DNA from: an uncultured Gammaproteobacteria bacterium
GTDB lineage: Bacteria; Patescibacteriota; Patescibacteriia; UBA9570; XYC2-FULL-38-9
Reading direction: 5' to 3'
Assembly: GCA_964492735.1 (NCBI GenBank)
Contig: CAZBLE010000003.1
Coordinates: 6,279 to 70,278 of the forward strand
DNA length: 64,000 nt
The position numbers were made by a program, and so were the translations under genes. This document shows positions 16,253 through 31,901 of the stretch, one piece after another; position 1 is the first letter of the stretch; each line of letters opens with the position of its first letter. The notes below the pieces were generated by a model, which was not told the DNA's origin, did not search any database, and saw only the letters and a program-made list of their open reading frames with translations.

Positions 16253-18274
16253 TTACGGCTGAGCGAACAGCGGGTGCGGGCCGTCGGCGATGGCCCAGTT
16301 GTGTGTGGTCTGGCTACCGTCGGGCCAAACGACCTCAACTTGCGCCGAAGCCTGGTTGCTGCCCAGGTCGAGGCAGAAGTCGGAGTCGAGGCCGTTCCGG
16401 TAGCCGGTCGGCTGCTCCCGGAGGACCTCAACGCCGCCCACGGTGACAGTCACGCGCGACAACGAGCCGTTTCGCGGGACAGTCACGCCGTTGCCGGCCA
16501 AGCTTCCGCAAAAGCGGTTTCCGGTTGCGATGCTGTCGTTGCGGAGGTACTTGGGATTCCCCTCATACACTCCGCTGACAACGCAGTCAGCGTCGCCGTC
16601 GTTGTCGAAGTCCGCGCAGACCATCTGGCGATGGTTGCCGCGCGTGGCGTCGGCGCCCATCGTGTCGTTGATGCCGATGCGAGACGGCGGGTAGGGGTAC
16701 GTCATCCCCATCTGGCCGCCCGTGCCGCGAACCGCCATATGCGCCGTGATCGGCTGGCCGTTGGTCGGGCACTCCGCAGCGCCAGGGCAGGTGCCGTTGT
16801 ACCCCCGGCCGTCGTGCCCCCACGGGGTGAGGAACGACGTCGCGACTTGCCCGTCCGGCAAGTAGCGCGTCGTCTCGCCGCCCATTTCCCAAGGGATGGG
16901 GCGCACGGGCGGACCCGGCTCGAAAACGCACGCTGCGCCGAGGCCCTGGCCGCCAGCCAGGGACCAGTCGGCCAACTGCGGGACGTTCCCGGTGTTGTCG
17001 AACCAGAGGTCCGACCCTGGATCGCGGCCGTAAGCCGAGAAACAGAGGTCGTTGCTGCTGGTCGACACCAACAGGTCGGGCCAGTTGTCGCCGTCGAGAC
17101 TGGTAAAGAGGCCGCCCATCGGGCGGCTCCAAGCCAATTGACTCCAACCAGAAGTCCCGTCCTGCTCCACGAAGCGTGGCCAGCCGTCGGTGGTCGTGCC
17201 GTCCCGGACGAAAACGCCGGTCGGCGATCCGCCCATGGGCGATCCCATCGCCCAGATGGTCAGCGACCCGTCGGGGCCGGGCAAGGCCAGCCAGGTGTAG
17301 AGATCGCTTCTCGCGCCAGGGAGGCGCTCGAAGTTTTGACTCGCAACCCAGCCTCCGCCCGGCTGCTGGAAGAACGTCCACGGCAGACTGTCTCGCGACA
17401 TCAAGAGAATGTCGAGCAGCCCATTTCCGTCGATGTCCCAGACGCCCGGGATCGGGCGGATCGTGAACCCGGCACCGCGCCAGGCGGCGTCAAAGGAAGG
17501 GTCAGGCGCCCAGCGACCGTCCGGCTGACGCTCAAAAACGAGCCCAAGCGGCGAAGCCGCCAGGATCTCGACCTGCCCGTCGCCGTCGAGGTCGACGAGG
17601 TCAAGGTAGTTGACCTCGGTCGCCGTTGAGATCCGCGGGTCGAACCCACGCTCGAGGAGACCTGCAGCGACGAAGTCGCCAATCCCGTCCCGAGGGACGG
17701 TCCAGGTTCCCGTCGCCGGGTCGAGCGTGCGGATCGCTCCGCGATAGCTCGACCCGACCCACCGCATGTCAAAGAGACACACCAAGGAGTCGTCCGCCGG
17801 ACCAGCCCAACCGCCCTTGGTGCAGGCGGCGGGATGCCGCTGCACCGGGCGCGGCCCAATGTCGTCCTCCAACCACCCCGCCATGGGCTGGCAGTTGGTG
17901 GGGACGTCGGGCGGACAGATGTCGCCCGCGAGCTCGGTGTAGGTCAGCTGCGGGTAGTCCCCGAGCTGCGTTCCGAGCGCGGTGGGAACGACGGGTGGGA
18001 CGACGTCGGTGTCAGCCGTGTCGACGGTGTCGGTGTCATCCGTGACCTCCCACGCGGGAGTCGTGTCGGTGCCTGCCGACTCATCCGAGTCGTCCGTGCC
18101 ACCTCCCGCCTCAGGCGGGATGGTGTCGTCGGAGGACGGGGGAATCGTGTCCGTCGTGTCGACGGTGTCGATGTCGGGGTGGGGCTGGCGGAAGCCAGCT
18201 CCCACGTCCTCGATGACCTGACAACCGGAGGTGAAAGCGAAGAAGCCAAAAACCAGAGCGCGAAGGGTCGTCAT
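16253..18274 (-). CDS. FG-GAP/VCBS-repeat lipoprotein (ASPIC/UnbV, CRTAC1-like), GC-rich foreign gene
   Basis: ~67 % GC against a ~45 % backbone. Lipobox-type signal MTTLRALVFGFFAFTSGC. Repeated DxDGDG loops (VDLDGDGQVE, WDIDGNGLLD, CADFDNDGDADC). GGAG Shine-Dalgarno sits 6 nt before the ATG at 18274. The longest ORF extends to 18346. Confidence 0.75.
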   Translation of the reverse strand: MTTLRALVFGFFAFTSGCQVIEDVGAGFRQPHPDIDTVDTTDTIPPSSDDTIPPEAGGGTDDSDESAGTDTTPAWEVTDDTDTVDTADTDVVPPVVPTALGTQLGDYPQLTYTELAGDICPPDVPTNCQPMAGWLEDDIGPRPVQRHPAACTKGGWAGPADDSLVCLFDMRWVGSSYRGAIRTLDPATGTWTVPRDGIGDFVAAGLLERGFDPRISTATEVNYLDLVDLDGDGQVEILAASPLGLVFERQPDGRWAPDPSFDAAWRGAGFTIRPIPGVWDIDGNGLLDILLMSRDSLPWTFFQQPGGGWVASQNFERLPGARSDLYTWLALPGPDGSLTIWAMGSPMGGSPTGVFVRDGTTTDGWPRFVEQDGTSGWSQLAWSRPMGGLFTSLDGDNWPDLLVSTSSNDLCFSAYGRDPGSDLWFDNTGNVPQLADWSLAGGQGLGAACVFEPGPPVRPIPWEMGGETTRYLPDGQVATSFLTPWGHDGRGYNGTCPGAAECPTNGQPITAHMAVRGTGGQMGMTYPYPPSRIGINDTMGADATRGNHRQMVCADFDNDGDADCVVSGVYEGNPKYLRNDSIATGNRFCGSLAGNGVTVPRNGSLSRVTVTVGGVEVLREQPTGYRNGLDSDFCLDLGSNQASAQVEVVWPDGSQTTHNWAIADGPHPLFAQP

Positions 18275-18714
18275 GGGAACTCCAGAGCTCGCACGCAGCG
18301 AGTTCATGGGTGGAACGAGACTGCAAACGGCACTATGCCATCGCAATCATTCTCTCTATCATCCAAATACCCCACGACAAAAATGCAATTACTGCATCGC
18401 TGTCCTGAGGCCTCTGGATGATAGAGACGAAACTAGATGAAAAATTCAATTTTCAAAGAATGCAAAAAATTCCAAGTTGGAACTTGCACTACTTACTATA
18501 TCCCATATTTTGACAAAAAAGTCAAGCATTTTTTGGCTAACCTCTGTTGATATTTTCTTAATACGAAAAAGGCCAGAAATACGCAGATGCACGGGGAGCT
18601 GGTCGCTCGCAGTTGTACAAAAGCCTATTCCTGGCGTGCCGAGAGACTCTCGGTAACTTACCTCAATCAGCCTGACTGACATTTCCGCCGTTATCAGCCG
18701 GGCCGATTTTTTTC

Positions 18715-18987: not shown

Positions 18988-19121
18988 GAGACCTCCAGCT
19001 CATGAGCGTAAGTGCTCATTTGTTGACTGATTATACAATTTTTCGCCCAAAAGTCAAGAAAATAAGCTTGTTATTCGGTCATTTTTCGGCTTTTAAAAAA
19101 CTGTGCTATACTCCACAAACT

Positions 19122-21329
19122 ATGCAAAAAAAATCTCCAAAAAAATCATCACCCTCCCCTACTCAAACTGCTGGAACAATTGGCACGCACACGGCAGCCA
19201 CTGAAATCCTCAAAACCCTCAACGACCAACAATCTCTCGCCGTCCAAACCACCACTGGACCCGTCCTCATTCTCGCTGGTGCAGGTAGTGGAAAAACAAA
19301 AACCCTTGTCCATCGAATCGCCTACCTCATTGCACACGAAAACGTGAAGCCGTGGAGCATTCTCGCTGTCACCTTTACCAACAAGGCCGCGCGCAACATG
19401 AAAGAGCGCATGGAAACACTTATTGGCCAAATGGAGCATCCGCCAGTGATGGGCACATTTCACTCAGTCTGCTCCCGCATTCTCCGTCGTGAAATTGAAG
19501 CCATTGGGTTTGAAAAAAACTTCACGATTTACGATTCAGACGACCAACTCACGCTGGTAAAAAAAATCATGAAGGACTTGGGGTATGACACAAAACAAGT
19601 CGCGCCATCGCTTGTTCATTGGCAGATCAGTAAAGCCAAAAATGAATTAAAAACACCAGCGCAAGTCGAAGCAGAAACTGGAGATGCCCTCTCAGAAGTG
19701 GTTGCGCGAGTGTATCCAAAATATCAATCAGAGTTGCAAGCACACAACGCTCTCGATTTTGATGACATGATCATGAAAACAGTTGAGCTACTCAAGCAAT
19801 ATCCGGAAGTGCTGAAAAAATATCAAACATTGTGGGAATATATTTTAGTCGATGAGTACCAAGATACCAATCAAGCACAATATCAGCTCGTAACAATGCT
19901 GGCAGCTGCACACAAAAATATTTGCGTGGTTGGAGATGATGCGCAATCGATTTATTCATGGCGACAAGCGGATATTCGCAACATTCTGGAATTTGAAAAA
20001 GACTACCCAGATGCGACGGAAATTTTCTTAGAACAAAACTATCGTTCAACGCAAACGATTCTTGATGCGAGTAATGCCATTATTGCGAATAACCCAAAAC
20101 AGAAAAAGAAAAAATTGTGGACGGAAAATCCAGGCGGTGATTCGATTATTGTTCGTGAACTTGAAGATGGTGATGCAGAAGGAAAGTATATTGTTGAAGT
20201 GATTGCTGGAAAAATTAAAGAACACGCAGGTAATGGAACAGACGGTTCAGACGATGAAGTGACGTATGACGATGAATACGCTCAACCTGATCCAGATGAA
20301 ATTGATCAATCCCCGATCAACGCCGGAGAAAGTATTTTGGATCGGATCATGGGTAGTAAAATGTTTAACCAACATAAAGAAACGGAAGAGCTGTCTGCGT
20401 ATATTAAAGCCAACAAAGCGTCGATCGATTTTGCGAAATACGTTGTACTGTATCGGACAAATGCGCAGTCTCGCCCTTTGGAAGAAGCGTTTTTGAAATA
20501 TGGGATTCCCTACCAACTCGTTGGCGGCTTGCGGTTTTATGATCGACGAGAAATTCGAGATCTGCTGGCCTATATGAAAGTCTTGTTCAACCCGAGCGAT
20601 TGGGTGGCAATGGAGCGGATTGTAAATGTACCGGCTCGCGGGATTGGCGACCGGACCTGGTTTAAAATTGAACAATTTGCCCGACAGCGAAATTTCACGG
20701 TGATTGACGCGGCGAAAAATGACATTCCAGATGTGCAAGCAGCTCGCATTGGAAAGTTTTATCAGTTTGCTGGTGAACTTGAGCATATTCGCAACCAAAT
20801 GGAAGCGCTGAATCCAACAGAAATCTTGGAGCTACTCACAAAAGAAATTTCGTTTAAGGAGCATTTAGAAAAAACGTCTGAGACAAAAGAGGAAGCAGAG
20901 ATGCGCTGGGAAAATGTGCAAGAATTAAAAAATGTCACGCAGAAATTTATGTCGCTCCGTGGCACTGAAGGCTTACTCGCCTTTTTAGAAGATGTTGCAC
21001 TTGTGTCAGACCAAGATTCGATTGATGAAAATGAAAAAGCCGTGAAGCTGATGACTGTTCATGCGGCAAAGGGCTTGGAATTCCCAGTTGTGTTTGTCAC
21101 CGGAATGGAAGAGGGATTGTTTCCACATTCTCGTTCACTCGTTGACCCACAAGAGATGGAAGAAGAGCGTCGCTTGTGTTATGTCGCACTCACGCGCGCT
21201 GAACATCAAGCCTATTTCTTGTTCGCTTCAAAACGCATGAAATATGGTGAGATGCATGTGAATCCTCCATCGCGTTTTCTTGATGAAATTCCAAAAGAAT
21301 TGGTTGTCTGGAAGTCGCCGTGGAATTAA
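19122..21329 (+). CDS. pcrA: ATP-dependent DNA helicase, UvrD/PcrA/Rep family
   Basis: Walker A AGAGSGKT and UvrD helicase motifs (TFTNKAA, VDEYQDTN). The start was moved to the ATG at 19122 (MQKKSPKK), preceded by an extended -10 TGcTATACT. The longest ORF starts at 19002. Confidence 0.9.
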   Translation: MQKKSPKKSSPSPTQTAGTIGTHTAATEILKTLNDQQSLAVQTTTGPVLILAGAGSGKTKTLVHRIAYLIAHENVKPWSILAVTFTNKAARNMKERMETLIGQMEHPPVMGTFHSVCSRILRREIEAIGFEKNFTIYDSDDQLTLVKKIMKDLGYDTKQVAPSLVHWQISKAKNELKTPAQVEAETGDALSEVVARVYPKYQSELQAHNALDFDDMIMKTVELLKQYPEVLKKYQTLWEYILVDEYQDTNQAQYQLVTMLAAAHKNICVVGDDAQSIYSWRQADIRNILEFEKDYPDATEIFLEQNYRSTQTILDASNAIIANNPKQKKKKLWTENPGGDSIIVRELEDGDAEGKYIVEVIAGKIKEHAGNGTDGSDDEVTYDDEYAQPDPDEIDQSPINAGESILDRIMGSKMFNQHKETEELSAYIKANKASIDFAKYVVLYRTNAQSRPLEEAFLKYGIPYQLVGGLRFYDRREIRDLLAYMKVLFNPSDWVAMERIVNVPARGIGDRTWFKIEQFARQRNFTVIDAAKNDIPDVQAARIGKFYQFAGELEHIRNQMEALNPTEILELLTKEISFKEHLEKTSETKEEAEMRWENVQELKNVTQKFMSLRGTEGLLAFLEDVALVSDQDSIDENEKAVKLMTVHAAKGLEFPVVFVTGMEEGLFPHSRSLVDPQEMEEERRLCYVALTRAEHQAYFLFASKRMKYGEMHVNPPSRFLDEIPKELVVWKSPWN

Positions 21330-21383
21330 GCGCTTGCGGGGCAGTGTCTCGCAAAAACCCGACGCTCGCACGCTTACTTACGG

Positions 21384-21415
21384 GAAGGTCTTACGACCTT
21401 CTTATTGTTTTTGCG
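21384..21415 (+). terminator. intrinsic terminator-like hairpin after pcrA
   Basis: GAAGGTC-ttac-GACCTTC stem-loop followed by a TTATTGTTTTTG T-run. Confidence 0.4.
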
Positions 21416-21507
21416 TAGACACTATCCCTTCCGCGACTTCACCTCTACGCTATTGTCGCTCTGATAAAAATTCTGTATACTGAGCATAATTATTTGGAGG
21501 AAAAATT

Positions 21508-22044
21508 ATGGCGACAACACAAAAAAGAAAAGCAGTGAGCAAGACACGAAAACGCACCGTCACAATTGAAGACGAAGTGTTGTCATTAGCGAGTTCTCCA
21601 ATGACAAAAACTGTGCAGCCAAAGAAAAAGGCAGCTGCGAAAACAAAAGCGAAAAAAACAACCGCGACAACAGCTCGCGCGAAAGCAGTAGCTGTGAAAA
21701 AAACAACGGTAAAAAAAGCAGCTACAAAATCAAAAGTAACGGCCAAAAAAGTTACGAGTAAAAAACCAACAGCAACAAAAACTGTTGCTAAAAAAACACC
21801 TGCGCGAAAAACAGTGGCAAAAAAATCAACCACTCGCACAGTCCGAACACGCAAACCTGCAACCATCCGCGAAACAATCGCTGCTGAAATGCGCGCTGTT
21901 GAGACAGAAACAAAACAGATTGCCAAAAATCCAACACTCCACAAAATGGTTCGCTTCTCAGAGCTCTATGTGTTGTCTGTGCTTGTGACTGTTATTATTC
22001 TTGCAACAGTGACTTGGACACAAACTGTACTCAACCTCCTGTAA
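21508..22044 (+). CDS. lysine/alanine/threonine-rich histone H1-like basic protein with C-terminal transmembrane anchor
   Basis: 178 aa. Strong RBS GGAGGAAAAATTATG. AKKT/KKxxAK repeats make up most of the protein. C-terminal hydrophobic helix LYVLSVLVTVIILATVTW. Confidence 0.6.
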   Translation: MATTQKRKAVSKTRKRTVTIEDEVLSLASSPMTKTVQPKKKAAAKTKAKKTTATTARAKAVAVKKTTVKKAATKSKVTAKKVTSKKPTATKTVAKKTPARKTVAKKSTTRTVRTRKPATIRETIAAEMRAVETETKQIAKNPTLHKMVRFSELYVLSVLVTVIILATVTWTQTVLNLL

Positions 22045-22107
22045 TAAAAAACTATTCCGGGGTAACAAAAATCGGGCACCTGAGTCCCGATTTTTTTATA
22101 GGCCAAT

Positions 22108-24174
22108 TTACTCTTGAGTGCCTTTTGCGAGGCGGAGCATTTGACGATATTCAGCTGGCGTAATCTGTGTTGCCCTCTGCATTTGCGCATTCGCTGTTCC
22201 ATCCGTTGATAGAGCAGCTTGTAAATCAATACCCATCGCTTCAATTAATCGCGGTGTTAAACGATGTGACAAAAATCCGGCCCCACGATGACGCACTTGA
22301 ACATCACCATACTCGTCATCTGCTGCTGCGGGTTTTAATGAAAATGATAATGGACCAATTTCAATTTCAGCATGCAATCCTTTTGAAACCATGTCATCTA
22401 GCGCATCTTCAATTGCTGAAAGTTGTCGCGCGGGGTTGAGTGTCTCAACTTTCGCACGAGGCTGCTCGATTGCTACTCGCTCATCAATAACCTCATCTTC
22501 ATCTTCCGTTTTTTTTGCAACGAGCTGCTCACTATTTTGCTCCTCCGGATTTTTTGGAGAGCGCTCTGTTGTTGCTGCTGGTGCTGGTGGAACATCGGGA
22601 ACGAGAGCTTGAGTAGTACGCACATCCGGCGCTACTTGTGCGCTTGGCTCAGCTGTCTGTGACGCTCCTTCAACAGCGGGCGCTTCTGGTGTTGTTGATT
22701 TTTTTGGTGCTTCCATTGCTTGGTGCACAGCAACTCCTTCTGAAGAGGTAAAATGCATTACACTCGCCAGCTCAGTTGGCGACAATACATGACTTGCATC
22801 TCCTGTATAAAACTGGACATTTTCAATAGTTCCGTCTGCAGCTTCGGTTACAATCATTCCAAGCTCTCCTCCTTTTGCGTCAACAAAGACATTAGCAAGC
22901 GTTCTTGTTTCTGCACCGATTGTCACTGGTAATTGCAATGCTGCCTTAATAGCAGCTATTTCATATCCTGCTCCAATTATTGCTTGAGACACACCTTCAC
23001 CTTTCTGAATCCATACCTTACTGACATCTGGCGTCGCTTCTTGCTCTTGCTGAACTGCTTCAACGCTTTCATCCGCAATAGTAGTTTCTGGAATAACTGG
23101 AGCACTCTCTGCAGGCATGACCTCTGACAGAGTTATTTCTGACTGAACTATTTGTGTGCTGGCTGTATTCTCAACTGCTTGTTGTTGTACTGCGGCTTCA
23201 ACGCGCCCTTGATCTTGATCACCTTGAAATGCTGCCGCTAACCCAAGTGCCATACCAAAACGACGCAATGCTTTTCCAAACCAACTTGTTTGTTTTTTTG
23301 ACTGCTCTGGCATTCGCAGTGGTGGTTTTTTATCAGAAGGTGCGGGCGCATTTTTTGCTGCTTCACGTGCAGCAACCTGAGCCGCAACATCGGCTTGTGC
23401 AATTTTTAAATTTTCTCGTGGAGTGCGACCATCTCGTGGACCGGAAGTTTCTGTTACTTGTTCAAGTGGTTGAGTTGGCTCATCTTCAAGATTATAAGGA
23501 TCATTACTTGATATGCGCGTTGGCTCATCATCGTCAGCCAAAGACGATGCATCTAGCGCATCATCTTTCGGCAAATCAGGAGCTACTGGCAACTCATCAA
23601 AATAATCTGAGACATTACTAAAACCTGTATCAACGGGAGCTTTTTCAGGAGTGCGTGACTCTTTCATTGGCTCATCATCAGCATCTAAATCTGCAAGCCA
23701 CTCCGTCCATTGCTGTTCAGCTTGTTTGGCTTTTTGGCCAACATCAACAAAACCTTCTGTGGTTTGATCGAATCCAGCGTCATTCAGGTGATCTTCTGGG
23801 TCAAAACCCTTTTGAGCCTCTCTCTTTTTTCGATCTTTTTCAGTACTTACTGCTATATCTCTTGCCTTTTGATCTAACTCAGGATCTTGCCGAAGCTCTT
23901 CTAACATACTGCGCCAGTCAGCAACACTAAAGACATCCACCTTTGGCGCTTTATCAGAAAATGATGGTGATTCCTCTGCTTTTACTGCAGCACGTAAATC
24001 ATCAATAGAGTGCATTGCTGTTTCGTCATATTGCGCCTGCACAACTGGTACGCCTGCTTCTTGTGCAACATCTAAACGCTCCTGCTCAGCTTCAAAATCA
24101 CGCCGTTTTTGACGAAGCGCATCTGTATCTATGAGGCCTCTTTTTTTTGACCTTGGAGGGTTATCGTATGACAT
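22108..24174 (-). CDS. acidic, low-complexity (intrinsically disordered) protein, paralog of 24233..25714
   Basis: 688 aa, rich in E, D, Q, A and P. Shares an ADW motif and a TSWFGKALRRFGMALGLAAA amphipathic/hydrophobic segment with the neighbouring gene. Confidence 0.6.
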   Translation of the reverse strand: MSYDNPPRSKKRGLIDTDALRQKRRDFEAEQERLDVAQEAGVPVVQAQYDETAMHSIDDLRAAVKAEESPSFSDKAPKVDVFSVADWRSMLEELRQDPELDQKARDIAVSTEKDRKKREAQKGFDPEDHLNDAGFDQTTEGFVDVGQKAKQAEQQWTEWLADLDADDEPMKESRTPEKAPVDTGFSNVSDYFDELPVAPDLPKDDALDASSLADDDEPTRISSNDPYNLEDEPTQPLEQVTETSGPRDGRTPRENLKIAQADVAAQVAAREAAKNAPAPSDKKPPLRMPEQSKKQTSWFGKALRRFGMALGLAAAFQGDQDQGRVEAAVQQQAVENTASTQIVQSEITLSEVMPAESAPVIPETTIADESVEAVQQEQEATPDVSKVWIQKGEGVSQAIIGAGYEIAAIKAALQLPVTIGAETRTLANVFVDAKGGELGMIVTEAADGTIENVQFYTGDASHVLSPTELASVMHFTSSEGVAVHQAMEAPKKSTTPEAPAVEGASQTAEPSAQVAPDVRTTQALVPDVPPAPAATTERSPKNPEEQNSEQLVAKKTEDEDEVIDERVAIEQPRAKVETLNPARQLSAIEDALDDMVSKGLHAEIEIGPLSFSLKPAAADDEYGDVQVRHRGAGFLSHRLTPRLIEAMGIDLQAALSTDGTANAQMQRATQITPAEYRQMLRLAKGTQE

Positions 24175-24177
24175 GTG

Positions 24178-24226
24178 ATTGAAGTTTATTACTTCAATTC
24201 ATACCACAAAAATCCCAAAAAGTCAA
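24178..24226 (-). promoter_or_regulatory. sigma70-like promoter (TTGACT-17-TATGAAT) with a perfect 8-bp inverted-repeat operator ending 3 nt before the start codon
   Basis: The palindrome ATTGAAGT-ttatt-ACTTCAAT at 24178..24198 overlaps the -10 box and the predicted transcription start. -35 TTGACT at 24221..24226 on the minus strand. Confidence 0.4.
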
Positions 24227-24232
24227 TGCTCT

Positions 24233-25714
24233 TTAGCGCGTATAATGTGGTTGTCGGCTCAAATCTTTTCCAAGTGTTGATACGTCTTCAGGAGTCAGTG
24301 AGCGAAAATCTTTTTCTCCTGGAAATCGTGCCACAATATCACCACTCGCGGATTGGCGTAATTCTAAACGCTTCGTTGGACTTAAGCGGATAAATACTTT
24401 TGATGAATCAAGACTCTCAAATAAACTTTTGACATAATCAATTTGTTTTTCAGGAGAAAGCGTACTCTTACTCATTTCAGCATTAAGTTGTTTGGCTACA
24501 TCAGCTGGTGCGACTGGCGCTTCTGCAACGGGTGTCACTGTTTTTGGTGCTTCCACATCAACGCTTGCGGGAGCAACGGGAACTGGAGGCATTGCCGGCT
24601 CTATCTGCATAGGTCGCACATCTTCTTCAGTAGCAACTACTGTCTGTTGCGCGGGTTGCTTTGAATCATTTCTGTAACGAACTGCAACTGGTAAATTATC
24701 TGGCGGCGGCGCAACAACGCGCTGAGATGGCACGCGTTCAGATGAACGGGGCTGTTGGACAGGGGTGGTAGGCACAGTAGGTGTAGCAACCTCCACTCGT
24801 GGAACAACAATAGTTGGCCGATCAGGCGCTGGTGCAGCTTGCGGTTTCTCAACCACATAAGTACTTGTTGCTTCTTGTGGGGTTTGGTTGGTTGGCACAG
24901 CCAGCGCTGCAACAAGACCAAGTCTGCGGCCCCAGCGCGTTAATGTATCAAGTGCGGCTTGTGCCTTTTTTCCAAACCAACTCGTAGCCGGCGGCTCTGG
25001 AACAACAGTAATTGTTTCTGTTCTTGGAGCAGCAGTGCGAGGGGTGCGTGTAAGATTTCTAATATCGCTAATACTTCCTGGTACAATTGGCTCGAGGGAT
25101 GCGGGTGCTGCATCGGCCTGTTGTTTTCGTGAAGACGTACGCTCAACAATTGGTGCTTGAGGGGGATGAGATACTTCATCTGAACCTGCTACATCTTCAG
25201 CAAAATTACCCATTGCAGAAGCATCCCAAAAAGGTTTATCTGTAGGCAAATTCCGTTCTAATGAGAATGGTGTATCTGCTGTCGCGGGATCATCTGTATA
25301 AAAAGAAGGTCGAAACAACTCTTCATCCTCAGACTCGCCTTCTAATGAGACCGGACCTGTATCTACATCATCTGGAATAGGCTGAATTGGATCTGGAAGA
25401 TCATTTATTAGATCCACTCGATCTCCAACTTGAGCTGCTCGCCCTGCAGCCTCTTGTCCAGCATACACTCGCGCAGCTACTTGCTCTGCCCGACGCGGAT
25501 CTTGAACAGCACCTCGAGCACGATCCAACATTGCTGTGTCATCATGCGTATCACTTGGTGTTGTCGGTACTTGTGCTTTACCGTCAACGACTGTTGGCTG
25601 GTTCCACACTTCATCTAAACGACCCCAATCTGCATGCGTTAAATCAGCTGTATCTGGTACCTTTTCTTGCGCAGGCTTTACCGCTTGCGCTCGCGGTCGT
25701 TCTGGATTACTCAT
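24233..25714 (-). CDS. acidic Pro/Ala-rich low-complexity protein, paralog of 22108..24174
   Basis: 493 aa. N-terminal ADW motif and TSWFGKKAQAALDTLTRWGRRLGLVAALAVP segment aligned with the neighbouring paralog. Confidence 0.6.
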   Translation of the reverse strand: MSNPERPRAQAVKPAQEKVPDTADLTHADWGRLDEVWNQPTVVDGKAQVPTTPSDTHDDTAMLDRARGAVQDPRRAEQVAARVYAGQEAAGRAAQVGDRVDLINDLPDPIQPIPDDVDTGPVSLEGESEDEELFRPSFYTDDPATADTPFSLERNLPTDKPFWDASAMGNFAEDVAGSDEVSHPPQAPIVERTSSRKQQADAAPASLEPIVPGSISDIRNLTRTPRTAAPRTETITVVPEPPATSWFGKKAQAALDTLTRWGRRLGLVAALAVPTNQTPQEATSTYVVEKPQAAPAPDRPTIVVPRVEVATPTVPTTPVQQPRSSERVPSQRVVAPPPDNLPVAVRYRNDSKQPAQQTVVATEEDVRPMQIEPAMPPVPVAPASVDVEAPKTVTPVAEAPVAPADVAKQLNAEMSKSTLSPEKQIDYVKSLFESLDSSKVFIRLSPTKRLELRQSASGDIVARFPGEKDFRSLTPEDVSTLGKDLSRQPHYTR

Positions 25715-25798: not shown

Positions 25799-27436
25799 TT
25801 ACACCAATCCTGCAAGATGGCGTTTACGATAAAACCCAATGGCAAATCGATGCGCTTCGTCACGCATGCGTTGCATTAAATACAGCCCTTGCGAATCACG
25901 CGGCAATAAAATCGGAGTAGAATTTTCTGGCAAGAATATTTCTTCAATGCGCTTGGCAAGTGAAATAATCGGAATATCCAAATGCGCGACATCGAGCATG
26001 GCTTTCGCGGATGACAACTGCCCTTTTCCTCCATCAATCACAATCAAACTTGGCGTTGGCCATGGATCAGCGATCTCTTTTTGTTTCCGCTTAATGTGTT
26101 TTACACGCCGGTTGATAACTTCGCGCATTGATGCGAAATCGTCCGACTTCCCTGTTCCACGCGCGCTGCGAATTTTGAATTTGCGATATTCACTCGGCGC
26201 TGGCCGGCCGTCAATAAACACAATCATTGAAGCGACCGTGTACGCTCCTTGATTATGCGAAATGTCATAGACTTCAATCCGGTGTAATTTTTCTGGCGTC
26301 GTCTCCAAAGCAGCGGCAAGCTCGGCAAGGGCTTTTTTTGCACGGGTGTCTTCTTTTTCAAATCGCGCCAAATGCTGCTCTAAGGCTTGCAACGCGTTCG
26401 CCTCTCCCATTTCTAGCAACTGTTTATTTTTCCCACGCCGCTCTTGCCGATTGGTCATGATGTCTTTTGGTTTTTCCAAGGCGGCTTGATAATACTGATC
26501 TTGAAACGCTTCTAACACATCGTCATCTGATTGATCTTTCACGTGTCGCAACAAAAAAACATTTTGCGCAATCAACCGACCATGGCGAACGATAAATACA
26601 TTGACCGCAGCAGTGTCATCAACGCGCGCAAGCGACAACACATCAACAGACTGCTCGCGAACATCAACCACTTTTTGATCAAAAAATAATCGATCAAGCG
26701 CTTGCAGTTGATCGCGTATAGTTGCTGCTTTTTCAAACCGCTTTGCTTCACTTGCCTGTCGCATTTGTTGTTGCAAATCGGCAATCACTGCGTCTGTCTC
26801 ACCAGACAGCATCCGCGCCATATCACGAAATAACGCTTGATACTCCTCTTGCGAAATAGCCTGCGCGCACGGCCCGATGCACCGTCCCAGTTGATATTGC
26901 AAACACGGGCGCTTTGGATAGACCACAACTCCACGCTTCACTTCTGGCGGTGTTGTGCAATATCGAAATACTGTTTGCATTGTCCGCAACGTTTTTTTCA
27001 CCGCAAACCCTGAAACATACGGCCCAAAATATTTCCCACGACGTGTTCCGAGGCGTGGCAACTGCCGCACTGTTTCAATGCGCGGAAATGGGTCGTCAGT
27101 GATATGAATATATTGAAAATTTTTGTCATCTTTCATGACAATGTTATAGGGCGGTTTGTGTTTTTTAATGAGCGTTGTTTCGAGTAGCAATGCTTCGGCC
27201 TCCGTGTCGACCGTGATTGTTTTGATATCCGCAATTTTGCCAACCATGAACTGCTTGGCTGGTGAATGATTTGTGCTCGAGCGAAAATACGACTGCACGC
27301 GTGATCGCAACTTCACCGCTTTGCCGACATACAACAGCTTTCCAGCTGCATCAAAAAACTGATACACCCCTGGCTTCATTGGCAAGTCTTGCACCTGTTT
27401 TGCGATTGTATCCACTGATTGCTCTGTGTCCATAGT
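25799..27436 (-). CDS. uvrC: excinuclease ABC subunit C
   Basis: GIY-YIG N-terminus (PGVYQFFDAAGKLLYVGKA) and full-length UvrC-like body. Start placed at MDTEQ (27436). The longest ORF extends to 27505. Confidence 0.9.
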   Translation of the reverse strand, partial: TMDTEQSVDTIAKQVQDLPMKPGVYQFFDAAGKLLYVGKAVKLRSRVQSYFRSSTNHSPAKQFMVGKIADIKTITVDTEAEALLLETTLIKKHKPPYNIVMKDDKNFQYIHITDDPFPRIETVRQLPRLGTRRGKYFGPYVSGFAVKKTLRTMQTVFRYCTTPPEVKRGVVVYPKRPCLQYQLGRCIGPCAQAISQEEYQALFRDMARMLSGETDAVIADLQQQMRQASEAKRFEKAATIRDQLQALDRLFFDQKVVDVREQSVDVLSLARVDDTAAVNVFIVRHGRLIAQNVFLLRHVKDQSDDDVLEAFQDQYYQAALEKPKDIMTNRQERRGKNKQLLEMGEANALQALEQHLARFEKEDTRAKKALAELAAALETTPEKLHRIEVYDISHNQGAYTVASMIVFIDGRPAPSEYRKFKIRSARGTGKSDDFASMREVINRRVKHIKRKQKEIADPWPTPSLIVIDGGKGQLSSAKAMLDVAHLDIPIISLAKRIEEIFLPENSTPILLPRDSQGLYLMQRMRDEAHRFAIGFYRKRHLAGLV

Positions 27437-27526
27437 GTATATATATGGTAGTGCGGCATATTTTGCAATAAAAAAATAGAGGGTGATAGAAATAAGACAT
27501 TCCACTCACCCTCGTATTTTTGTTGT

Positions 27527-29131
27527 TTATTGCGCTTCCATGGCACGACCCGTTTCTTTGGCTGCTTCAAAGATAGACGTCGTAAGAGCTTTCCAATGTT
27601 CCTGGCTGAAGAAATTTGGATCTGGATGCTCAATCTGCTCAGCGATTAACACTTCCATCGTATCCGTCACTTCATCATTCACTGACTGGATTGTTTTGAC
27701 CACTTGATTTTTGGTCGTATCCACAACAACGGTTGTACGAACAGCATCTGGCTGATCTGTATATCGATAGACAACGGTCATAAGCGCTCCATCCGTCACT
27801 TGAGATTCCACAACTCCATAATTACGAAATTGATCAATATACCGCTCTGGACTGAGTGCCCATTTCTGCATATTGGTCTCCCAATTTTTATCAGCACCTT
27901 GAAGCGCATCAGCTTGATAGTCCAGAATTAACTGATCATTAAACGCTTGCACCTCTTCAGCGGTGAGTGCTGTGACTGTATTTGTTTCAAGATCATAATG
28001 ATAGACATCGGATCGCATAACAGTTTCAAACGTTGCTTCAGAAAAATTTCCTTGTCCAAGCTCGACAATTTTTTCATAAGACAACTGAACTAAAAATTGG
28101 GTTTCACGAGCAATATTTTCTGGTTCATTCGGCAGCGTTTCCATATTGCGGGTGCTTCCAAAATTTCCAATAACCGCAAACTGATTTTCATACCCTTCTG
28201 TCGTTTTCTTATTTGCAACAACATCTTCTGGATGCAATTGCGGATTAAAGAGAAATGGCTTCCAATGCGTTTTGTCGCGCGTTGTTGGCTTGTCTGTTAG
28301 TGTATTATAGGTATTTGTCCATACTCGAAGACGTGGCATGATTGTTCCAACTGGCTCGACCTCTCCGTGTGATAGAGCTTCTGGCATTTCTGGCAACGGT
28401 GCCGATGTTGTGACTGACAATGTTTTCACTGGGCCATCATATCCTTCATGTTCAATAACCATTGGCTTCATCACTGTAATTTTTTCACCTATCAGAGCTG
28501 GCGTACGTGCTGCAACATTCACATCAACGCGATTACATGCAACTGCCATATCTGTCACGTGCGCATCATCAAAGAAACAATTTTCAGAAGTTTGCGCATT
28601 CATGACATGATTCAGGGTTGATACAATTCCTGCATATGGCTCTCCATTGAGCGGCTGCGTACGAATACTCATCATACCCACGAGTGGTTGACTCCACGTT
28701 TCAACAACTTGATTTCCATCCCATTGCTTTGAGATTGTTGTATAGTTAATTTTCATATGACGAATCGCTTGAGCGGATGTTCCAAATGTATTGGTAATAG
28801 AATCCGCAACAACTGACTCGGCTGATTGGTTTGTGATATTTGCAATTGGTGAATTGGTTCGTGCAAATTTTTGACCTGCCTGCTGAATAGCGAGTGGTCC
28901 ACCTGCGAGAACAAATACTAACGCTCCAACAGCAAGTGCGCTGGCTGGAATCAGTAATCGCAACCACCGACGGCGATATGTTGATGTGTGCATAGAATAT
29001 ATCTGATAAGTTCGATACGCTTGAATTGTTGCATAACGCAATTCTTCAGTGTGGTCTGTGCGCTCTGGAATCGGAACAGCCCGCAATAGCTGCTCGAGTG
29101 ATTCTTCAAATTGTGATGGTGAGTGTTTCAT
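27527..29131 (-). CDS. membrane-anchored anti-sigma-factor-like protein with large extracytoplasmic domain
   Basis: 534 aa. Single TM helix (LLIPASALAVGALVFVLAGG) after a ~60-aa cytoplasmic N-terminus. Lies immediately downstream of an ECF sigma gene. Paralogous to 29800..31395 (shared C-terminal NPxxFFSxxxWK). Confidence 0.6.
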   Translation of the reverse strand: MKHSPSQFEESLEQLLRAVPIPERTDHTEELRYATIQAYRTYQIYSMHTSTYRRRWLRLLIPASALAVGALVFVLAGGPLAIQQAGQKFARTNSPIANITNQSAESVVADSITNTFGTSAQAIRHMKINYTTISKQWDGNQVVETWSQPLVGMMSIRTQPLNGEPYAGIVSTLNHVMNAQTSENCFFDDAHVTDMAVACNRVDVNVAARTPALIGEKITVMKPMVIEHEGYDGPVKTLSVTTSAPLPEMPEALSHGEVEPVGTIMPRLRVWTNTYNTLTDKPTTRDKTHWKPFLFNPQLHPEDVVANKKTTEGYENQFAVIGNFGSTRNMETLPNEPENIARETQFLVQLSYEKIVELGQGNFSEATFETVMRSDVYHYDLETNTVTALTAEEVQAFNDQLILDYQADALQGADKNWETNMQKWALSPERYIDQFRNYGVVESQVTDGALMTVVYRYTDQPDAVRTTVVVDTTKNQVVKTIQSVNDEVTDTMEVLIAEQIEHPDPNFFSQEHWKALTTSIFEAAKETGRAMEAQ

Positions 29132-29137
29132 AAAAAG

Positions 29138-29647
29138 TTACACAATTGATTGAACAGACTGAACACTGTTTTTTAAACGCTTGATCGCCTGACTCAACAT
29201 GCTACTGACTGTTTTTTGATCAATGTCGAGCATCTCCGCAATTTCCACATTTGAAAAATCGGATTGGTATCGCAGCAAAAGAACCTCGCGCTGACGGTCA
29301 GTCAGGCTCCCAAGATGCTGTTGCAGCATTTCCAGATTCATCGCCGTGTCGAGCGCAATGTCTGGCATCTCTGCTGTATCAGCGACATCATAATCCGCGA
29401 TATCGTCTGTTTGCTTTTGTGTGCGGTAGTGGTCGATGACTGTATTGCGCGCAATGGTGTACATCCATTTACGAAATGCCAGCTCGTCATTTTTTGGCGC
29501 AAGAGCGTCATAATGGCGAACGACTTTTTCAAAAATCGCAGATACCAAATCTTCGGTTGTTTCCATGTGACTCACACGCAAATACACAAAACGATAAATC
29601 GGTTTATGATACGTGTCGAATAGCGCGGCGATTTGTTCAAGCGTCAT
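29138..29647 (-). CDS. RNA polymerase ECF-type sigma-70 factor
   Basis: 169 aa. Sigma-70 region 2 (PIYRFVYLRV, IARNTVIDHYR) and region 4 HTH (DRQREVLLLRY...IAEMLDIDQKTVSS). Confidence 0.85.
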   Translation of the reverse strand: MTLEQIAALFDTYHKPIYRFVYLRVSHMETTEDLVSAIFEKVVRHYDALAPKNDELAFRKWMYTIARNTVIDHYRTQKQTDDIADYDVADTAEMPDIALDTAMNLEMLQQHLGSLTDRQREVLLLRYQSDFSNVEIAEMLDIDQKTVSSMLSQAIKRLKNSVQSVQSIV

Positions 29648-29799: not shown

Positions 29800-31395
29800 T
29801 TAGTCCTTGATAATCTCCTTGGCACGCTCTTTCCATGCCTTCTCAGAAAAAAACGTGTCTGGATTATCTGTTGTTGTTTTGAGCGCGTCGAATGTTGTGG
29901 TGTAGATTGTTGCTTGCTGTGTATTTGGATAATCATACCGCTCAATAATTGCCGTCAATAACTGAGTCTGACTATCAACACGCACTTCTGTTGTTCCAAT
30001 CATGTGCATCGATGGATTATCCGCATTCCACTCTTGGGTCACGCTATACACATATTCAGTTCCTTCAATGCGTGGCGTGACAGTATGGAGTTGCGCAAAC
30101 ACAGCAGATCCGCCAGCAATGTAATTGAAGAACGTCTCTCCTGAATTACTGGTAAAAATCTCTTTTCGTACTGCTAAGCGTCGTGCATTAAACTGCTCGA
30201 TATCTTCAGGTGTTTGAGTAAGCGGATGCACACTCTCAAATCGCCATTCATCAGAAAATTTCATTTGAAACACTTGAGATGCAGCAGAAAATAATTTTGA
30301 ATCATACTGCTTTTCTTGAACTGTTGTTGCTCCAAGAAGCGCTGTGTTGAGCTGCACAATTTGTAGTTGTACTTCAGAAAAAATACGTACCGGATTTTGT
30401 GTCGCCTCTGTTAACGTATCATGCGCATAACGCCCATCCAACATGAATGCAAATGATTGTTTATACCGACCATTCACTGGAACGTTCCACTCAGGATCTG
30501 CAATTCCTCCAGAGACATTTCCAAGTGGAGATAATGCAATTGGAGCAAAGGCAATATTATTTTGCGCATCAATAAACTCAGAAAGATATTTCACATAAGA
30601 CGGTTCAGCGATCAGAATGCCGAGATTGCTTGGGTCAATCGGCACTGCAGTTGTAAATGACATCTGCTCACTATCAAGGTCTGTATTATATGAAAAGTCT
30701 TGAATATCAAGTGGTGGTTGTTTTTCTGCGAAACCAACATAATCTGCAATACCACCTGAGTCACAGACATGCTCATTCGTAGCTAAATCTTCATTTGCAC
30801 TTTTTATTGATTGTGCATTGTGCATATCAACGCCGATGACACAATTTTCAATTGATTGCGCGTCAGCGTTCAAGTTTGTCATACGATACCTCTTTTCTTC
30901 TTGGACACTTGGTCCTGTTTTGCGCAGGTATCCAGTGAATGCGTGTTGTGCAATATAATATTCCTGATCCGTCCGCGCCGTAACTTCTTTTACTTCTGAC
31001 TGATTACCATTTGTATTCATGTCTTCACGAACCGTATGAAACACAACATGACGAATACCATCGGTAGTAGAAAAAGTGTGTTGAATTGATTCTGCAATAA
31101 GTTCTTGCGGAACAATGGATTCAATAATTGAATTCGTATTGTTCGTACGTGCTGCAAACTCACTGCGGAGCGCTGGGCTACCAACTGTAATCACACCAAT
31201 CGCAACAGCAGCCAAAGCAAATCCTGGCACTGCGAACCGAGAAACAAACCGACGTAGTCTCTGGCGCTGCGTAGTCGCCTCTTCTGTTGCAGACTCGAAC
31301 ATTCGAGCTTGGATAGCCGCTCTGTGAGCGTCGTGCTCTGGTACTGCTACACGCGCAAACATATCTTTTAATTGTTCTTCTGGTAAACGTTTCAT
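29800..31395 (-). CDS. membrane-anchored anti-sigma-factor-like protein, paralog of 27527..29131
   Basis: 531 aa. TM helix (FAVPGFALAAVAIGVITVG). Overlaps the upstream sigma gene by 4 nt. C-terminal conserved motif DNPDTFFSEKAWK. Confidence 0.6.
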   Translation of the reverse strand: MKRLPEEQLKDMFARVAVPEHDAHRAAIQARMFESATEEATTQRQRLRRFVSRFAVPGFALAAVAIGVITVGSPALRSEFAARTNNTNSIIESIVPQELIAESIQHTFSTTDGIRHVVFHTVREDMNTNGNQSEVKEVTARTDQEYYIAQHAFTGYLRKTGPSVQEEKRYRMTNLNADAQSIENCVIGVDMHNAQSIKSANEDLATNEHVCDSGGIADYVGFAEKQPPLDIQDFSYNTDLDSEQMSFTTAVPIDPSNLGILIAEPSYVKYLSEFIDAQNNIAFAPIALSPLGNVSGGIADPEWNVPVNGRYKQSFAFMLDGRYAHDTLTEATQNPVRIFSEVQLQIVQLNTALLGATTVQEKQYDSKLFSAASQVFQMKFSDEWRFESVHPLTQTPEDIEQFNARRLAVRKEIFTSNSGETFFNYIAGGSAVFAQLHTVTPRIEGTEYVYSVTQEWNADNPSMHMIGTTEVRVDSQTQLLTAIIERYDYPNTQQATIYTTTFDALKTTTDNPDTFFSEKAWKERAKEIIKD

Positions 31396-31901
31396 ATGGT
31401 TGTTGAAAAATGATTGCGAAGTTTATGAATAGCTTTTGAGATAGTTGATGCAACGGCCTTTTGGTCAATTCCCATTACAGAGGCAATTTCAGTATTTGTC
31501 AGATCTGCTTCAAGGCGTAATAACACACATTCTTTTTGACGATCTGGAAGCAGCGCGATGGCTTCGTGGACCTGTTCGAGTGAAAGCGTGTGGTCAACAA
31601 TTGCGTCTGGAAGTGGCTCTGTATCGATGATGGCAAGATCTTCAATTGGTGTATCGCTGTGCGGTCGATTGGCTTGCTTGCGATAATGATCAATGAGCGT
31701 GTTCCGCGCGATCGCGAAAATCCACGATTTTTCTGTCGCTCCAGGTTGCTGTTTGAAGCGCGGAAAATGTTTGATGACTTTTTCAAAAATATGTGAAACC
31801 AAGTCTTCAGCTGTCTGTTTGTGGCCCACGCGAAAATAGACGAAGCGGTAGACCGGCTCGTAATATGTTTGGAACAAGATCATTAATTCATGTTGAGACA
31901 T
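31392..31901 (-). CDS. RNA polymerase ECF-type sigma-70 factor (second copy)
   Basis: 169 aa, ~50 % identical to 29138..29647 (PVYRFVYFRV, IARNTLIDHYRKQ, DRQKECVLLRL...IASVMGIDQKAVAS). Confidence 0.85.
   Translation of the reverse strand: MSQHELMILFQTYYEPVYRFVYFRVGHKQTAEDLVSHIFEKVIKHFPRFKQQPGATEKSWIFAIARNTLIDHYRKQANRPHSDTPIEDLAIIDTEPLPDAIVDHTLSLEQVHEAIALLPDRQKECVLLRLEADLTNTEIASVMGIDQKAVASTISKAIHKLRNHFSTTI

Follow-up and report, generated by a model that had tools for sequence, protein, structure and literature searches.

Membrane-anchored histone-like proteins are almost unknown in bacteria, and the only studied example that we found in the literature is Rv3852 of Mycobacterium tuberculosis, a nucleoid-associated protein with a membrane anchor, annotated 'H-NS', whose N-terminal Lys-rich tetrapeptide repeats (PAKK/KKAP) bind DNA and whose C-terminal transmembrane (TM) helix anchors it to the membrane (PMC4433263, PMC8233713); it is reported to occur only in M. 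tuberculosis and its close relatives (PMC8233713). Among envelope scaffolds, MapZ (LocZ) of Streptococcus pneumoniae begins with a disordered cytoplasmic domain, which includes a conserved N-terminal peptide and amphipathic helices that bind the membrane; a single TM helix and two extracellular subdomains follow, and a flexible, Ser-rich linker connects these subdomains (PMC4931243, PMC7055233). MapZ is phosphorylated (PMC7055233). HubP/FimV proteins are scaffolds anchored in the membrane that unite a LysM-like domain for wall binding, a single TM segment and an acidic cytoplasmic region of very large size (PMC12918733). Here we analysed a 64-kb stretch of contig CAZBLE010000003.1 from an uncultured bacterium (hereafter the window), in which three neighbouring genes, named A178, B688 and C493 after the lengths of their products, recall these systems. 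We read B688 and C493, with a probability of about 40%, as a MapZ/HubP-like pair of envelope scaffolds standing beside a membrane-tethered, DNA-binding polycation, A178.

The trio is flanked by pcrA/uvrD (19002-21329, +) and uvrC (25799-27505, -). The first-pass annotation, a reading of the letters of the window, had described a basic open reading frame (ORF) on the forward strand and two acidic tandem ORFs on the reverse strand; this arrangement was found again, with coordinates, strands and lengths in exact agreement (Table 1). All three are real genes, with synteny kept in up to six other contigs and with purifying selection that is uneven along the proteins. The ratio of nonsynonymous to synonymous substitution rates (dN/dS) was 0.18 for A178 overall (N-terminal motif 0.04, K-rich tract 0.30, C-terminal part 0.12) and 0.41 for C493 overall (C-terminal domain 0.08, acidic N-terminal region 0.55), as compared with 0.018 for uvrD.

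A178 has an isoelectric point (pI) of 11.4 and 44 Lys and Arg residues against 8 Asp and Glu; Thr, Lys, Ala and Val make up 64% of it, and its repeats comprise six [AVT]KK[TVSAP] tetrapeptides and one weak 30-bp tandem repeat. An N-terminal motif comes first in the protein, then a variable K/T/A/V-rich region (aa 38-117); a juxtamembrane segment that is conserved and prone to form a helix (aa 118-149) leads over to the TM helix. The motif, the juxtamembrane segment and the C-terminal hydrophobic helix are kept in orthologs; the K-rich tract varies in length among them and is nearly deleted in one of 127 aa (P0012). In the ortholog alignment the N-terminal motif (aa 14-36) reads RKRT[VI]T[IL]EDEVLSLAS[SA]PMTKTV, with variation at the three bracketed positions only; EVLSLAS within it was considered as a possible beta-clamp-binding motif, a reading that we did not adopt. 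The helix is a confident TM segment, with a Kyte-Doolittle 19-residue mean of up to 2.2 and a Hessa-scale sum of -0.9 kcal/mol, and from the positive-inside rule we infer that the N-terminal ~145 residues, with a net charge of about +36, face the cytoplasm (N-in). Composition and hydropathy thus agree with the basic, Lys-rich repeat protein with a C-terminal TM helix that had been recognized by eye. A178 remained below the family thresholds of Pfam PF07382 HC2 (27.2 bits, cutoff 40) and of the NCBIfam models NF038053 hist_H1_lk_Burk (30.4 bits, cutoff 80), NF038052 histone_lik_HC2 (20.6 bits, cutoff 135) and NF050153 Rv3852_fam (15.8 bits, E 0.015, cutoff 100), and its sub-threshold HC2 and Burkholderia H1-like scores are driven by composition. 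By analogy, we read A178 as a protein that would work like Rv3852 without belonging to its family.

B688 (pI 4.5, net charge -55) and C493 (pI 4.9, net charge -18) are both rich in Ala, Pro, Gln, Glu and Asp, and neither contains Cys. In the AlphaFold2 models, 402 of the 688 residues of B688 and 375 of the 493 of C493 had a predicted local distance difference test score (pLDDT) below 50, while residues 381-478 and 578-688 of the former and 400-487 of the latter were folded (pLDDT 73-85). The initial description of both proteins as disordered therefore holds for most of their residues and fails for three folded domains, two in B688 and one in C493. The N-terminal region of B688 begins with the conserved MSY(D/E)NPPR and carries the motif (A/E)(D/G)WR.ML.E. 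Its middle domain is modelled as a beta-alpha-alpha-beta unit (beta 383-389, alpha 395-401, alpha 406-412, beta 416-419) followed by about 5 strands, and has the signature I.NGEG[VI]SQA....G......AL...V.G....L......GG.LGM, with 17 invariant columns across seven sequences.

On the sequence comparisons, the two acidic proteins can be taken as paralogs, real but very remote. BLASTP aligned only the SWFGK segment (E 0.002); hhalign matched their C-terminal domains over ~80 residues (probability 87.5%, E 3.6e-6) and, with full-length profiles, the same region at E 4e-4. Three colinear modules are common to both, namely an N-terminal peptide, a basic-then-hydrophobic segment and a C-terminal alpha/beta domain. 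The N-terminal peptide, given above for B688, is MSNPERPR in C493 and MSNPKD..ENPR in a distant B-like protein, P0030, and an aromatic 'DW/GW/EF' motif lies downstream of it in both paralogs. The earlier claim of paralogy was thus right as to shared modules in the same order, with a relatedness that is only very distant.

The topology of B688 and C493 hinges on the SWFGK segment, which had been put forward as a conserved amphipathic segment. As a literal string SWFGK occurs only among close relatives; as a pattern it stands at the same position in all homologs, where an aromatic residue comes first, followed by a cluster of basic residues (net +2 to +6) and by a hydrophobic run rich in G, A and L, and a degenerate membrane anchor fits it better than a plain amphipathic helix. 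P0030 and P0031, the most distant of the homologs, have at this place a TM-like helix of 18 uncharged residues behind a +4 to +6 cluster; the uncharged run measures 11-17 residues in B orthologs and 9 in all C proteins. In C493, the model shows a low-confidence helix at residues 246-264, with a hydrophobic moment of 0.49. In every homolog basic residues precede the hydrophobic run and neutral or acidic residues follow it, consistently with an N-in/C-out orientation. We give a bitopic topology a slight preference over a cytoplasmic one, and an envelope location is plausible for both proteins. A position of their C-terminal parts outside the membrane is favoured because the sequence after the anchor is stalk-like (Gln/Ala/Glu-rich in the B688 of the window, Ser/Asp-rich in other alleles), Cys is absent, the domains diverge fast and the B alleles are mosaic.

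Whole-protein scans of Pfam, NCBIfam, PADLOC and PHROGs, together with PDB sequences and PDB folds, found no characterised relative of the three proteins, in line with the earlier impression, gained by eye, of no homology to characterised division or nucleoid proteins. Profiles of the B middle domain and of the C-terminal domain shared by B688 and C493 had no match in Pfam or PDB sequences (best E value of the former against PDB sequences not below 0.44), and the seven middle-domain sequences gave no match to the LysM, OapA and Csd3_N2 profiles at E up to 10. Foldseek searches of PDB folds gave no match better than E 1.7 for B688 and E 0.6 for C493. In the family libraries, C493 gave a match to TIGR02574 (E 0.058), and a Crinkler match to B688 (E 0.0065) was spurious. 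Homology to the extracellular subdomains of MapZ was found neither with the Pfam MapZ domains nor by fold among the best 50-60 matches listed per search. An FtsK fragment and a TolA-like protein, the identities that the first-pass annotation had set against its own proposal, did not appear: neither acidic protein had an FtsK family match at E up to 1 (positions 43432-45861 encode a complete FtsK, in which the 4TM, alpha, motor and gamma domains are all present), and a TolA/TonB-like identity was rejected as there was no Pfam/NCBIfam, PDB sequence or fold match and the anchor is internal, not N-terminal. We also discarded a defence system or prophage cargo, the genes being syntenic and core-like and the PADLOC and PHROGs defence and phage models matching nothing in B688 or C493 and only JetC, at E 0.1, in A178.

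All three families are tiny. A word-indexed search of a 5.8 billion-protein collection returned only B688 itself, three relatives of C493 (81-33% identical) and seven of A178 (88-40% identical), with four clusters for C493 and seven for A178, and an exhaustive phmmer (HMMER) search of 1.84 billion representatives with B688 returned six proteins. Scans of genome contigs with B688 and the A alignment, and of metagenome contigs with the A alignment and the B middle-domain alignment, gave no match. The view of the trio as lineage-restricted is thereby borne out. Conservation of the gene neighbourhood, the check that had accompanied it, gave a matching result, the order uvrD-A / B-C-uvrC being complete in contig L005 (uvrD and A on one strand; B, C, uvrC, a TM-anchored protein and an extracytoplasmic function (ECF) sigma factor on the other), interrupted in L002 only by a DUF3800 gene between A and uvrD (L002:6690-7343), and partly preserved in L006, L009 and L010. 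A and B are convergent neighbours in six of the seven contigs that show what lies downstream of A, and the locus tolerates insertions in other strains (L002, L011). All the syntenic loci come from close relatives, since the RpoB of L005 falls in the 90%-identity cluster of that of the window.

Two further contigs, L007 and L008, carry the B-like genes of P0030/P0031 in a folD / Ser-Thr kinase / ychF context. Directly upstream of the B-like gene, both encode a conserved 96-aa helical protein with no Pfam match on record (L007:3500-3790 and L008:3667-3957); its gene ends 4 nt before the B-like gene in L007 and overlaps the B-like start in L008, and the Ser/Thr kinase is encoded divergently. These neighbours suggest a different partner set in that lineage.

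Divergence across the locus was very uneven. Between the window and L005, amino acid identity was 95% for the ECF sigma factor, 92% for UvrC, 84% for UvrD, 48% for A, 39% for C, 35% for B and 29% for the TM-anchored protein (D534 in the window). The folded domains of B and C thus change much more quickly than the cytoplasmic proteins encoded nearby, with a divergence similar to that of D534. Between the window and L006, uvrD and A were 90% identical at the nucleotide level and the C-B intergenic element was also common to both, and the body of the B ORF had no detectable nucleotide similarity; the B middle domain of the window was 33% identical to that of L006 and 50% identical to that of the more distant L005. 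Comparison of the B688 ORF with L006:3520-6384, L002:3686-5959 and L005:10633-12648 showed two forms of the protein. The first (window, L005, L009) has no Ser/Asp insert and a long linker between its two domains. In the second (L002, L006 and P0029 of L010) the two domains abut and an insert of ~370 Ser/Asp/Gly/Thr-rich residues directly follows the hydrophobic segment, as seen in L006 and L002; in L010 the fragment is short, and the insert would lie upstream of the sequence covered. The L002 and L006 inserts contain 21% Ser and 20% Asp, and that of L006 has a net charge of -68. By eye, the N-terminal halves assort differently again from the two forms. B thus exists in two mosaic forms, far apart in sequence, whose occurrence does not follow the genes on either side, a pattern common in surface-exposed proteins, and these alleles look like the product of allelic exchange under diversifying pressure.

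Two observations concern L002 (GCA_964608475.1). Its B ortholog (L002:2954-5959) has one in-frame stop that leaves ORFs of 231 and 757 aa in the same frame, which would fit a split gene, a pseudogene, readthrough or an error in the assembly. Recombination in uvrC between the window and L002, suspected from uneven protein identity, was rejected: nucleotide identity was uniform at about 75%, and the uneven UvrC protein identity therefore reflects uneven constraint.

Expression signals set the three genes apart (Table 1). The strong Shine-Dalgarno sequence (SD) reported earlier ahead of A178 is indeed there, and each gene has its own promoter-like site, although such consensus sites are no more numerous in the region than is expected from shuffled sequence. 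The 43-nt element upstream of B688 shows hardly any variation among five loci, although their coding flanks are only 35-40% identical, and is most likely the promoter of B688 itself. Given these separate sites and the bidirectional terminator-like hairpin between A178 and B688, the trio is not one operon. B688 has no obvious SD and its leader would be short; a small hairpin, ATTGAAGT-AATAA-ACTTCAAT, directly precedes its ATG.

Table 1 Features of the A178-B688-C493 locus, in coordinates of the window.
Feature	Position	Strand	Description
Terminator-like hairpin after pcrA/uvrD	21382-21403	+	9-bp stem, then T-run, tail ATTGTTTTTG; separates A178 from the upstream gene
Promoter-like site for A178	21453-21481	+	TTGTCG-17-TATACT; consensus match only
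Shine-Dalgarno sequence of A178	21496-21500	+	GGAGG, 7 nt before ATG, read from the sequence
A178	21508-22044	+	178-aa ORF; tail-anchored, lysine-rich, H1/Hc2-like
Polycationic low-complexity region of A178 (aa 38-117)	21619-21858	+	K+R 30, D+E 0
C-terminal TM helix of A178 (aa ~150-172)	21955-22023	+	From hydropathy; ~6 uncharged residues after the helix
Bidirectional terminator-like hairpin between convergent A178 and B688	22068-22100	.	AAAAATCGGG-CACCTGAGT-CCCGATTTTTTT; flanked by A-run and T-run
B688	22108-24174	-	688-aa ORF; acidic, multi-module
C-terminal domain of B688 (aa 578-688)	22111-22443	-	alpha-beta-beta-beta-(beta)-alpha plus extra helices; paralogous to the C-terminal domain of C493
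Folded middle domain of B688 (aa 381-478)	22741-23034	-	AlphaFold2 pLDDT 73-83
Basic cluster and short hydrophobic run of B688 (aa 296-318)	23221-23289	-	TSWFGKALRR-FGMALGLAAAF-QG
N-terminal acidic region of B688 (aa 1-295)	23290-24174	-	Net ~-23; mostly low-confidence helical or disordered
43-nt intergenic element upstream of B688	24186-24228	-	TTGACT-17-TGgTATGAA...GTAATAA
C493	24233-25714	-	493-aa ORF; acidic, Pro/Ala/Val-rich, paralog of B688
C-terminal domain of C493 (aa 401-493)	24236-24514	-	alpha-alpha-beta-beta-beta-(beta)-alpha; most constrained part, dN/dS 0.08
Pro/Ala/Val-rich linker of C493 (aa 274-400)	24515-24895	-	Predicted disordered
Amphipathic basic helix and 9-residue hydrophobic run of C493 (aa 244-273)	24896-24985	-	TSWFGKKAQAALDTLTRWGRR-LGLVAALAV-P
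Promoter-like site for C493	25751-25779	-	TTGAAA-17-TGgTAGAAT, 10/12 matches, extended -10; overlaps the hairpin just after the uvrC stop

In the scaffold-and-polycation model that we favour, three lineage-restricted envelope proteins would meet at the cytoplasmic membrane. A178 would have its C-terminal helix in the membrane and its N-terminal ~145 residues in the cytoplasm, where the K/T/A-rich tract would bind DNA or another polyanion and hold it against the membrane as Rv3852 does, and where the near-invariant N-terminal motif may be a docking site for a partner. B688 and C493 would each expose a conserved N-terminal peptide and an acidic, largely disordered region to the cytoplasm, cross the membrane N-in/C-out by a weak hydrophobic anchor behind a basic cluster, and continue outside as a low-complexity stalk, Pro/Ala-rich in C493, whose small conserved globular heads (two in B688, one in C493) may contact the wall or the cell surface. 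Their acidic cytoplasmic tails (net -23 and -17) would lie on the same membrane face as the polylysine tract of A178, with which they may interact. Adjacency, shared narrow distribution and charge suggest such a contact; that it would be direct and driven by charge we purely infer. The envelope-scaffold proposal made in the first-pass annotation is thus partly supported, in the membrane tethering of A178 and a plausible envelope location of the acidic pair. B688 and C493 form a so far uncharacterised family, in which two small folded domains are new; with a layout resembling that of MapZ or HubP, they are candidates for the landmark or surface-contact proteins missing from this uncultured, small-genome organism. 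Diversifying pressure on the locus is suggested by the dimorphic, mosaic alleles of B.

Several points weigh against this model. The hydrophobic run of the window proteins is only 11 (B688) and 9 (C493) residues long, Hessa-scale sums over 19-residue windows (+8.2 and +10.8 kcal/mol, respectively) do not predict a TM helix, AlphaFold2 confidence is low at the segment, and it lies 245-300 residues into the chain, an unusual place for an export signal. MapZ and HubP were absent from the matches listed (best 50-60 per fold search), and fast divergence, taken above as a sign of exposure, is also expected of disordered proteins wherever they are located. DNA binding by A178 is deduced from its composition. 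The link between A178 and the acidic pair is circumstantial and the clade is tiny, which limits the weight of the case; that link is weakened by the three separate promoter-like sites and the A/B terminator, by an unrelated AT-rich gene directly downstream of A in L011 (L011:631-1218), and by the B-like genes of L007 and L008, which have no A-like gene within the retrieved flank (up to 10 kb).

The same short hydrophobic runs, 9-11 residues being too few for a TM helix, would suit an arrangement, in essence that of the first-pass annotation, in which all three proteins are cytoplasmic and B688 and C493 are peripheral, held by an in-plane amphipathic helix (hydrophobic moment 0.44-0.69 in the adjoining helix) and a short hydrophobic stub. 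Their polyanionic disordered regions would then bind or buffer the polylysine of A178 and tune the DNA held at the membrane, in the manner of acidic chaperones or DNA mimics, of which prothymosin-alpha acting on histone H1 is an example. The complementary charges (A178 +36, B688 -55, C493 -18, the L006 insert -68), the A-B adjacency kept in six of seven loci and the absence of an N-terminal signal peptide from both acidic proteins are consistent with it, and a cytoplasmic Pro/Gln-rich tether ending in a globular head is known from ZipA. However, the segment is TM-like in P0030/P0031, where 18 residues are uncharged, and the charge asymmetry across it obeys the positive-inside rule in every homolog. 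Moreover, what is conserved is the folded domains and the N-terminal peptide rather than the acidic tracts (dN/dS 0.08 versus 0.55 in C493), a B-like gene occurs without A in L007 and L008, and dimorphism with mosaic alleles, as seen in B, is more like a surface protein than like a housekeeping chaperone. We hold a wholly cytoplasmic trio to be rather unlikely.

Whether the genes belong together at all can also be doubted. A178 may be a stand-alone membrane-tethered nucleoid-associated protein, B688 and C493 fast-evolving surface or adhesion proteins or targets of phage or host contact, and the synteny a mere reflection of shared descent in one genus-level clade. Conserved order carries little weight among loci that are all close relatives, and the separate expression signals, the unrelated genes inserted in L002 (DUF3800) and L011, the different context of the B-like gene in L007 and L008, and the switching of B form independently of A (between the window and L006, A keeps 90% nucleotide identity and B shows no nucleotide similarity) all fit coincidence. 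On the other side, without being decisive, each of the three genes is restricted to a very narrow clade that it shares with the other two, A-B remains uninterrupted in six of seven loci in a region that tolerates insertions, and the charge complementarity is extreme. We hold a coincidental neighbourhood, too, to be rather unlikely.

Charge complementarity could be given a larger role than in the scaffold-and-polycation model. Polylysine A178 and membrane-anchored, polyanionic B688 and C493 would be held together by charge as a layer along the membrane's inner face, physically coupling the nucleoid to envelope-spanning, surface-exposed heads, which would be hypervariable because they face hosts or phages. 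If true, a small-genome bacterium would possess a kind of tether between nucleoid and envelope that has not been described before. We regard such a layer as improbable. If B688 and C493 span the membrane, much of the acidic sequence of B688 would lie outside the cell, away from A178. Finally, an artefactual origin of the ORFs, as chance frames in low-complexity or repeat DNA or as pseudogenes, for which the low-complexity sequence, the long shadow ORFs on the opposite strand and the in-frame stop of the L002 B ortholog could be invoked, is effectively refuted by orthologs that keep start peptides and folded domains with invariant columns, by dN/dS values well below 1, by the confident AlphaFold2 domains and by the conserved promoter-like element upstream of B. 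The 164-aa shadow ORF antisense to A178 (21450-21944, -) is a by-product of Lys/Thr/Ala low-complexity codons and no gene.

The rest of the window is ordinary chromosome of a bacterium with ~43% GC, encoding iPGM, MurD, a class I tRNA synthetase, RNase J, UvrA, GroEL, RecA, GuaA and RpoB/RpoC in addition to FtsK; no rRNA or tRNA genes were found in its 64 kb. Among PDB entries, RpoB comes closest to Firmicutes-type polymerases, an uninformative match. Two genes stand out by GC content, one for a 697-aa FG-GAP repeat protein (16253-18346, -; stretch of ~0.65 GC) and one for a 328-aa protein that starts with a signal-like helix and has no Pfam match (32143-33129, -; stretch of ~0.57 GC); both were probably acquired by horizontal transfer from a high-GC donor, and L002 has an FG-GAP gene at the position matching that of the window. 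Two tandem pairs (27527-29647, - and 29800-31901, -) each consist of a 169-aa ECF sigma factor followed by a large partner of 534 or 531 aa, presumably an anti-sigma factor, neither partner having a Pfam match. The 534-aa partner, D534, has an N-terminal TM anchor, and in this first pair the sigma factor (29138-29647) is 95% identical between the window and L005 and D534 only 29%. A few kb upstream of the locus, a 1744-aa ORF (10759-15993, -) whose position is conserved in L005 would encode a large surface protein, since its L005 ortholog (70% identical) has Big_6 and Big_13 domains.

Compared with the systems outlined at the outset, B688 is like MapZ in its module order, with the difference that the anchor is TM-like only in P0030/P0031 and 9-11 residues long in the window proteins. 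MapZ is a substrate of the kinase StkP, and in L007/L008 the B-like gene adjoins a Ser/Thr kinase gene. With HubP/FimV, B688 and C493 would share an anchored-scaffold layout with an acidic cytoplasmic region. HubP/FimV differ in having LysM at a periplasmic N-terminus, the opposite orientation, and in their Gram-negative hosts; B688 and C493, in turn, have no FimV C-terminal TPR domain and no LysM profile match. By its AlphaFold2 model, the middle domain of B688 opens with a beta-alpha-alpha-beta unit, which is LysM-type topology; its structural matches to LysM-bearing M23 proteins were below significance. M23 endopeptidases with N-terminal wall-binding domains were the sole recurring theme among the listed weak matches of B688, all of them below significance, which included the M23/LytM N-terminal domains of NMB0315 (3slu), Csd3 (4rny), VC0503 (2gu1), ShyA (6u2a) and EnvC (8tzl); we take this theme as no more than a lead.

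Staphylococcal Clf/Sdr surface proteins carry serine-aspartate repeat stalks. The Ser/Asp tract of the L002 and L006 B proteins, which B688 of the window does not have, resembles these stalks in lying between the anchor and the first globular domain, the position of a wall-spanning stalk, and differs from them in its irregular DSADS/GDS-type sequence, as opposed to pure SD dipeptides, and in having no LPXTG sorting signal.

A178 resembles the soluble chlamydial Hc2 (PF07382) and Burkholderia H1-like protein (NF038053), which gave its best profile scores, in its Lys/Ala/Thr-rich low-complexity composition; both are without a TM helix and without the conserved terminal modules of A178. With Rv3852 it has in common the order of parts, Lys-rich repeats and then a single C-terminal TM helix, with the polycation presumably facing the cytoplasm. 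It departs from Rv3852 in modules of its own (the EDEVLSLASxPMTKTV motif and the juxtamembrane helix), in a longer K/T/A/V tract, in the lack of significant homology and in its low-GC, small-genome host lineage. The resemblance is thus probably convergent and, if A178 did arise independently, the tethering of DNA to the membrane by a polylysine protein with a tail anchor would seem to be a recurring solution.

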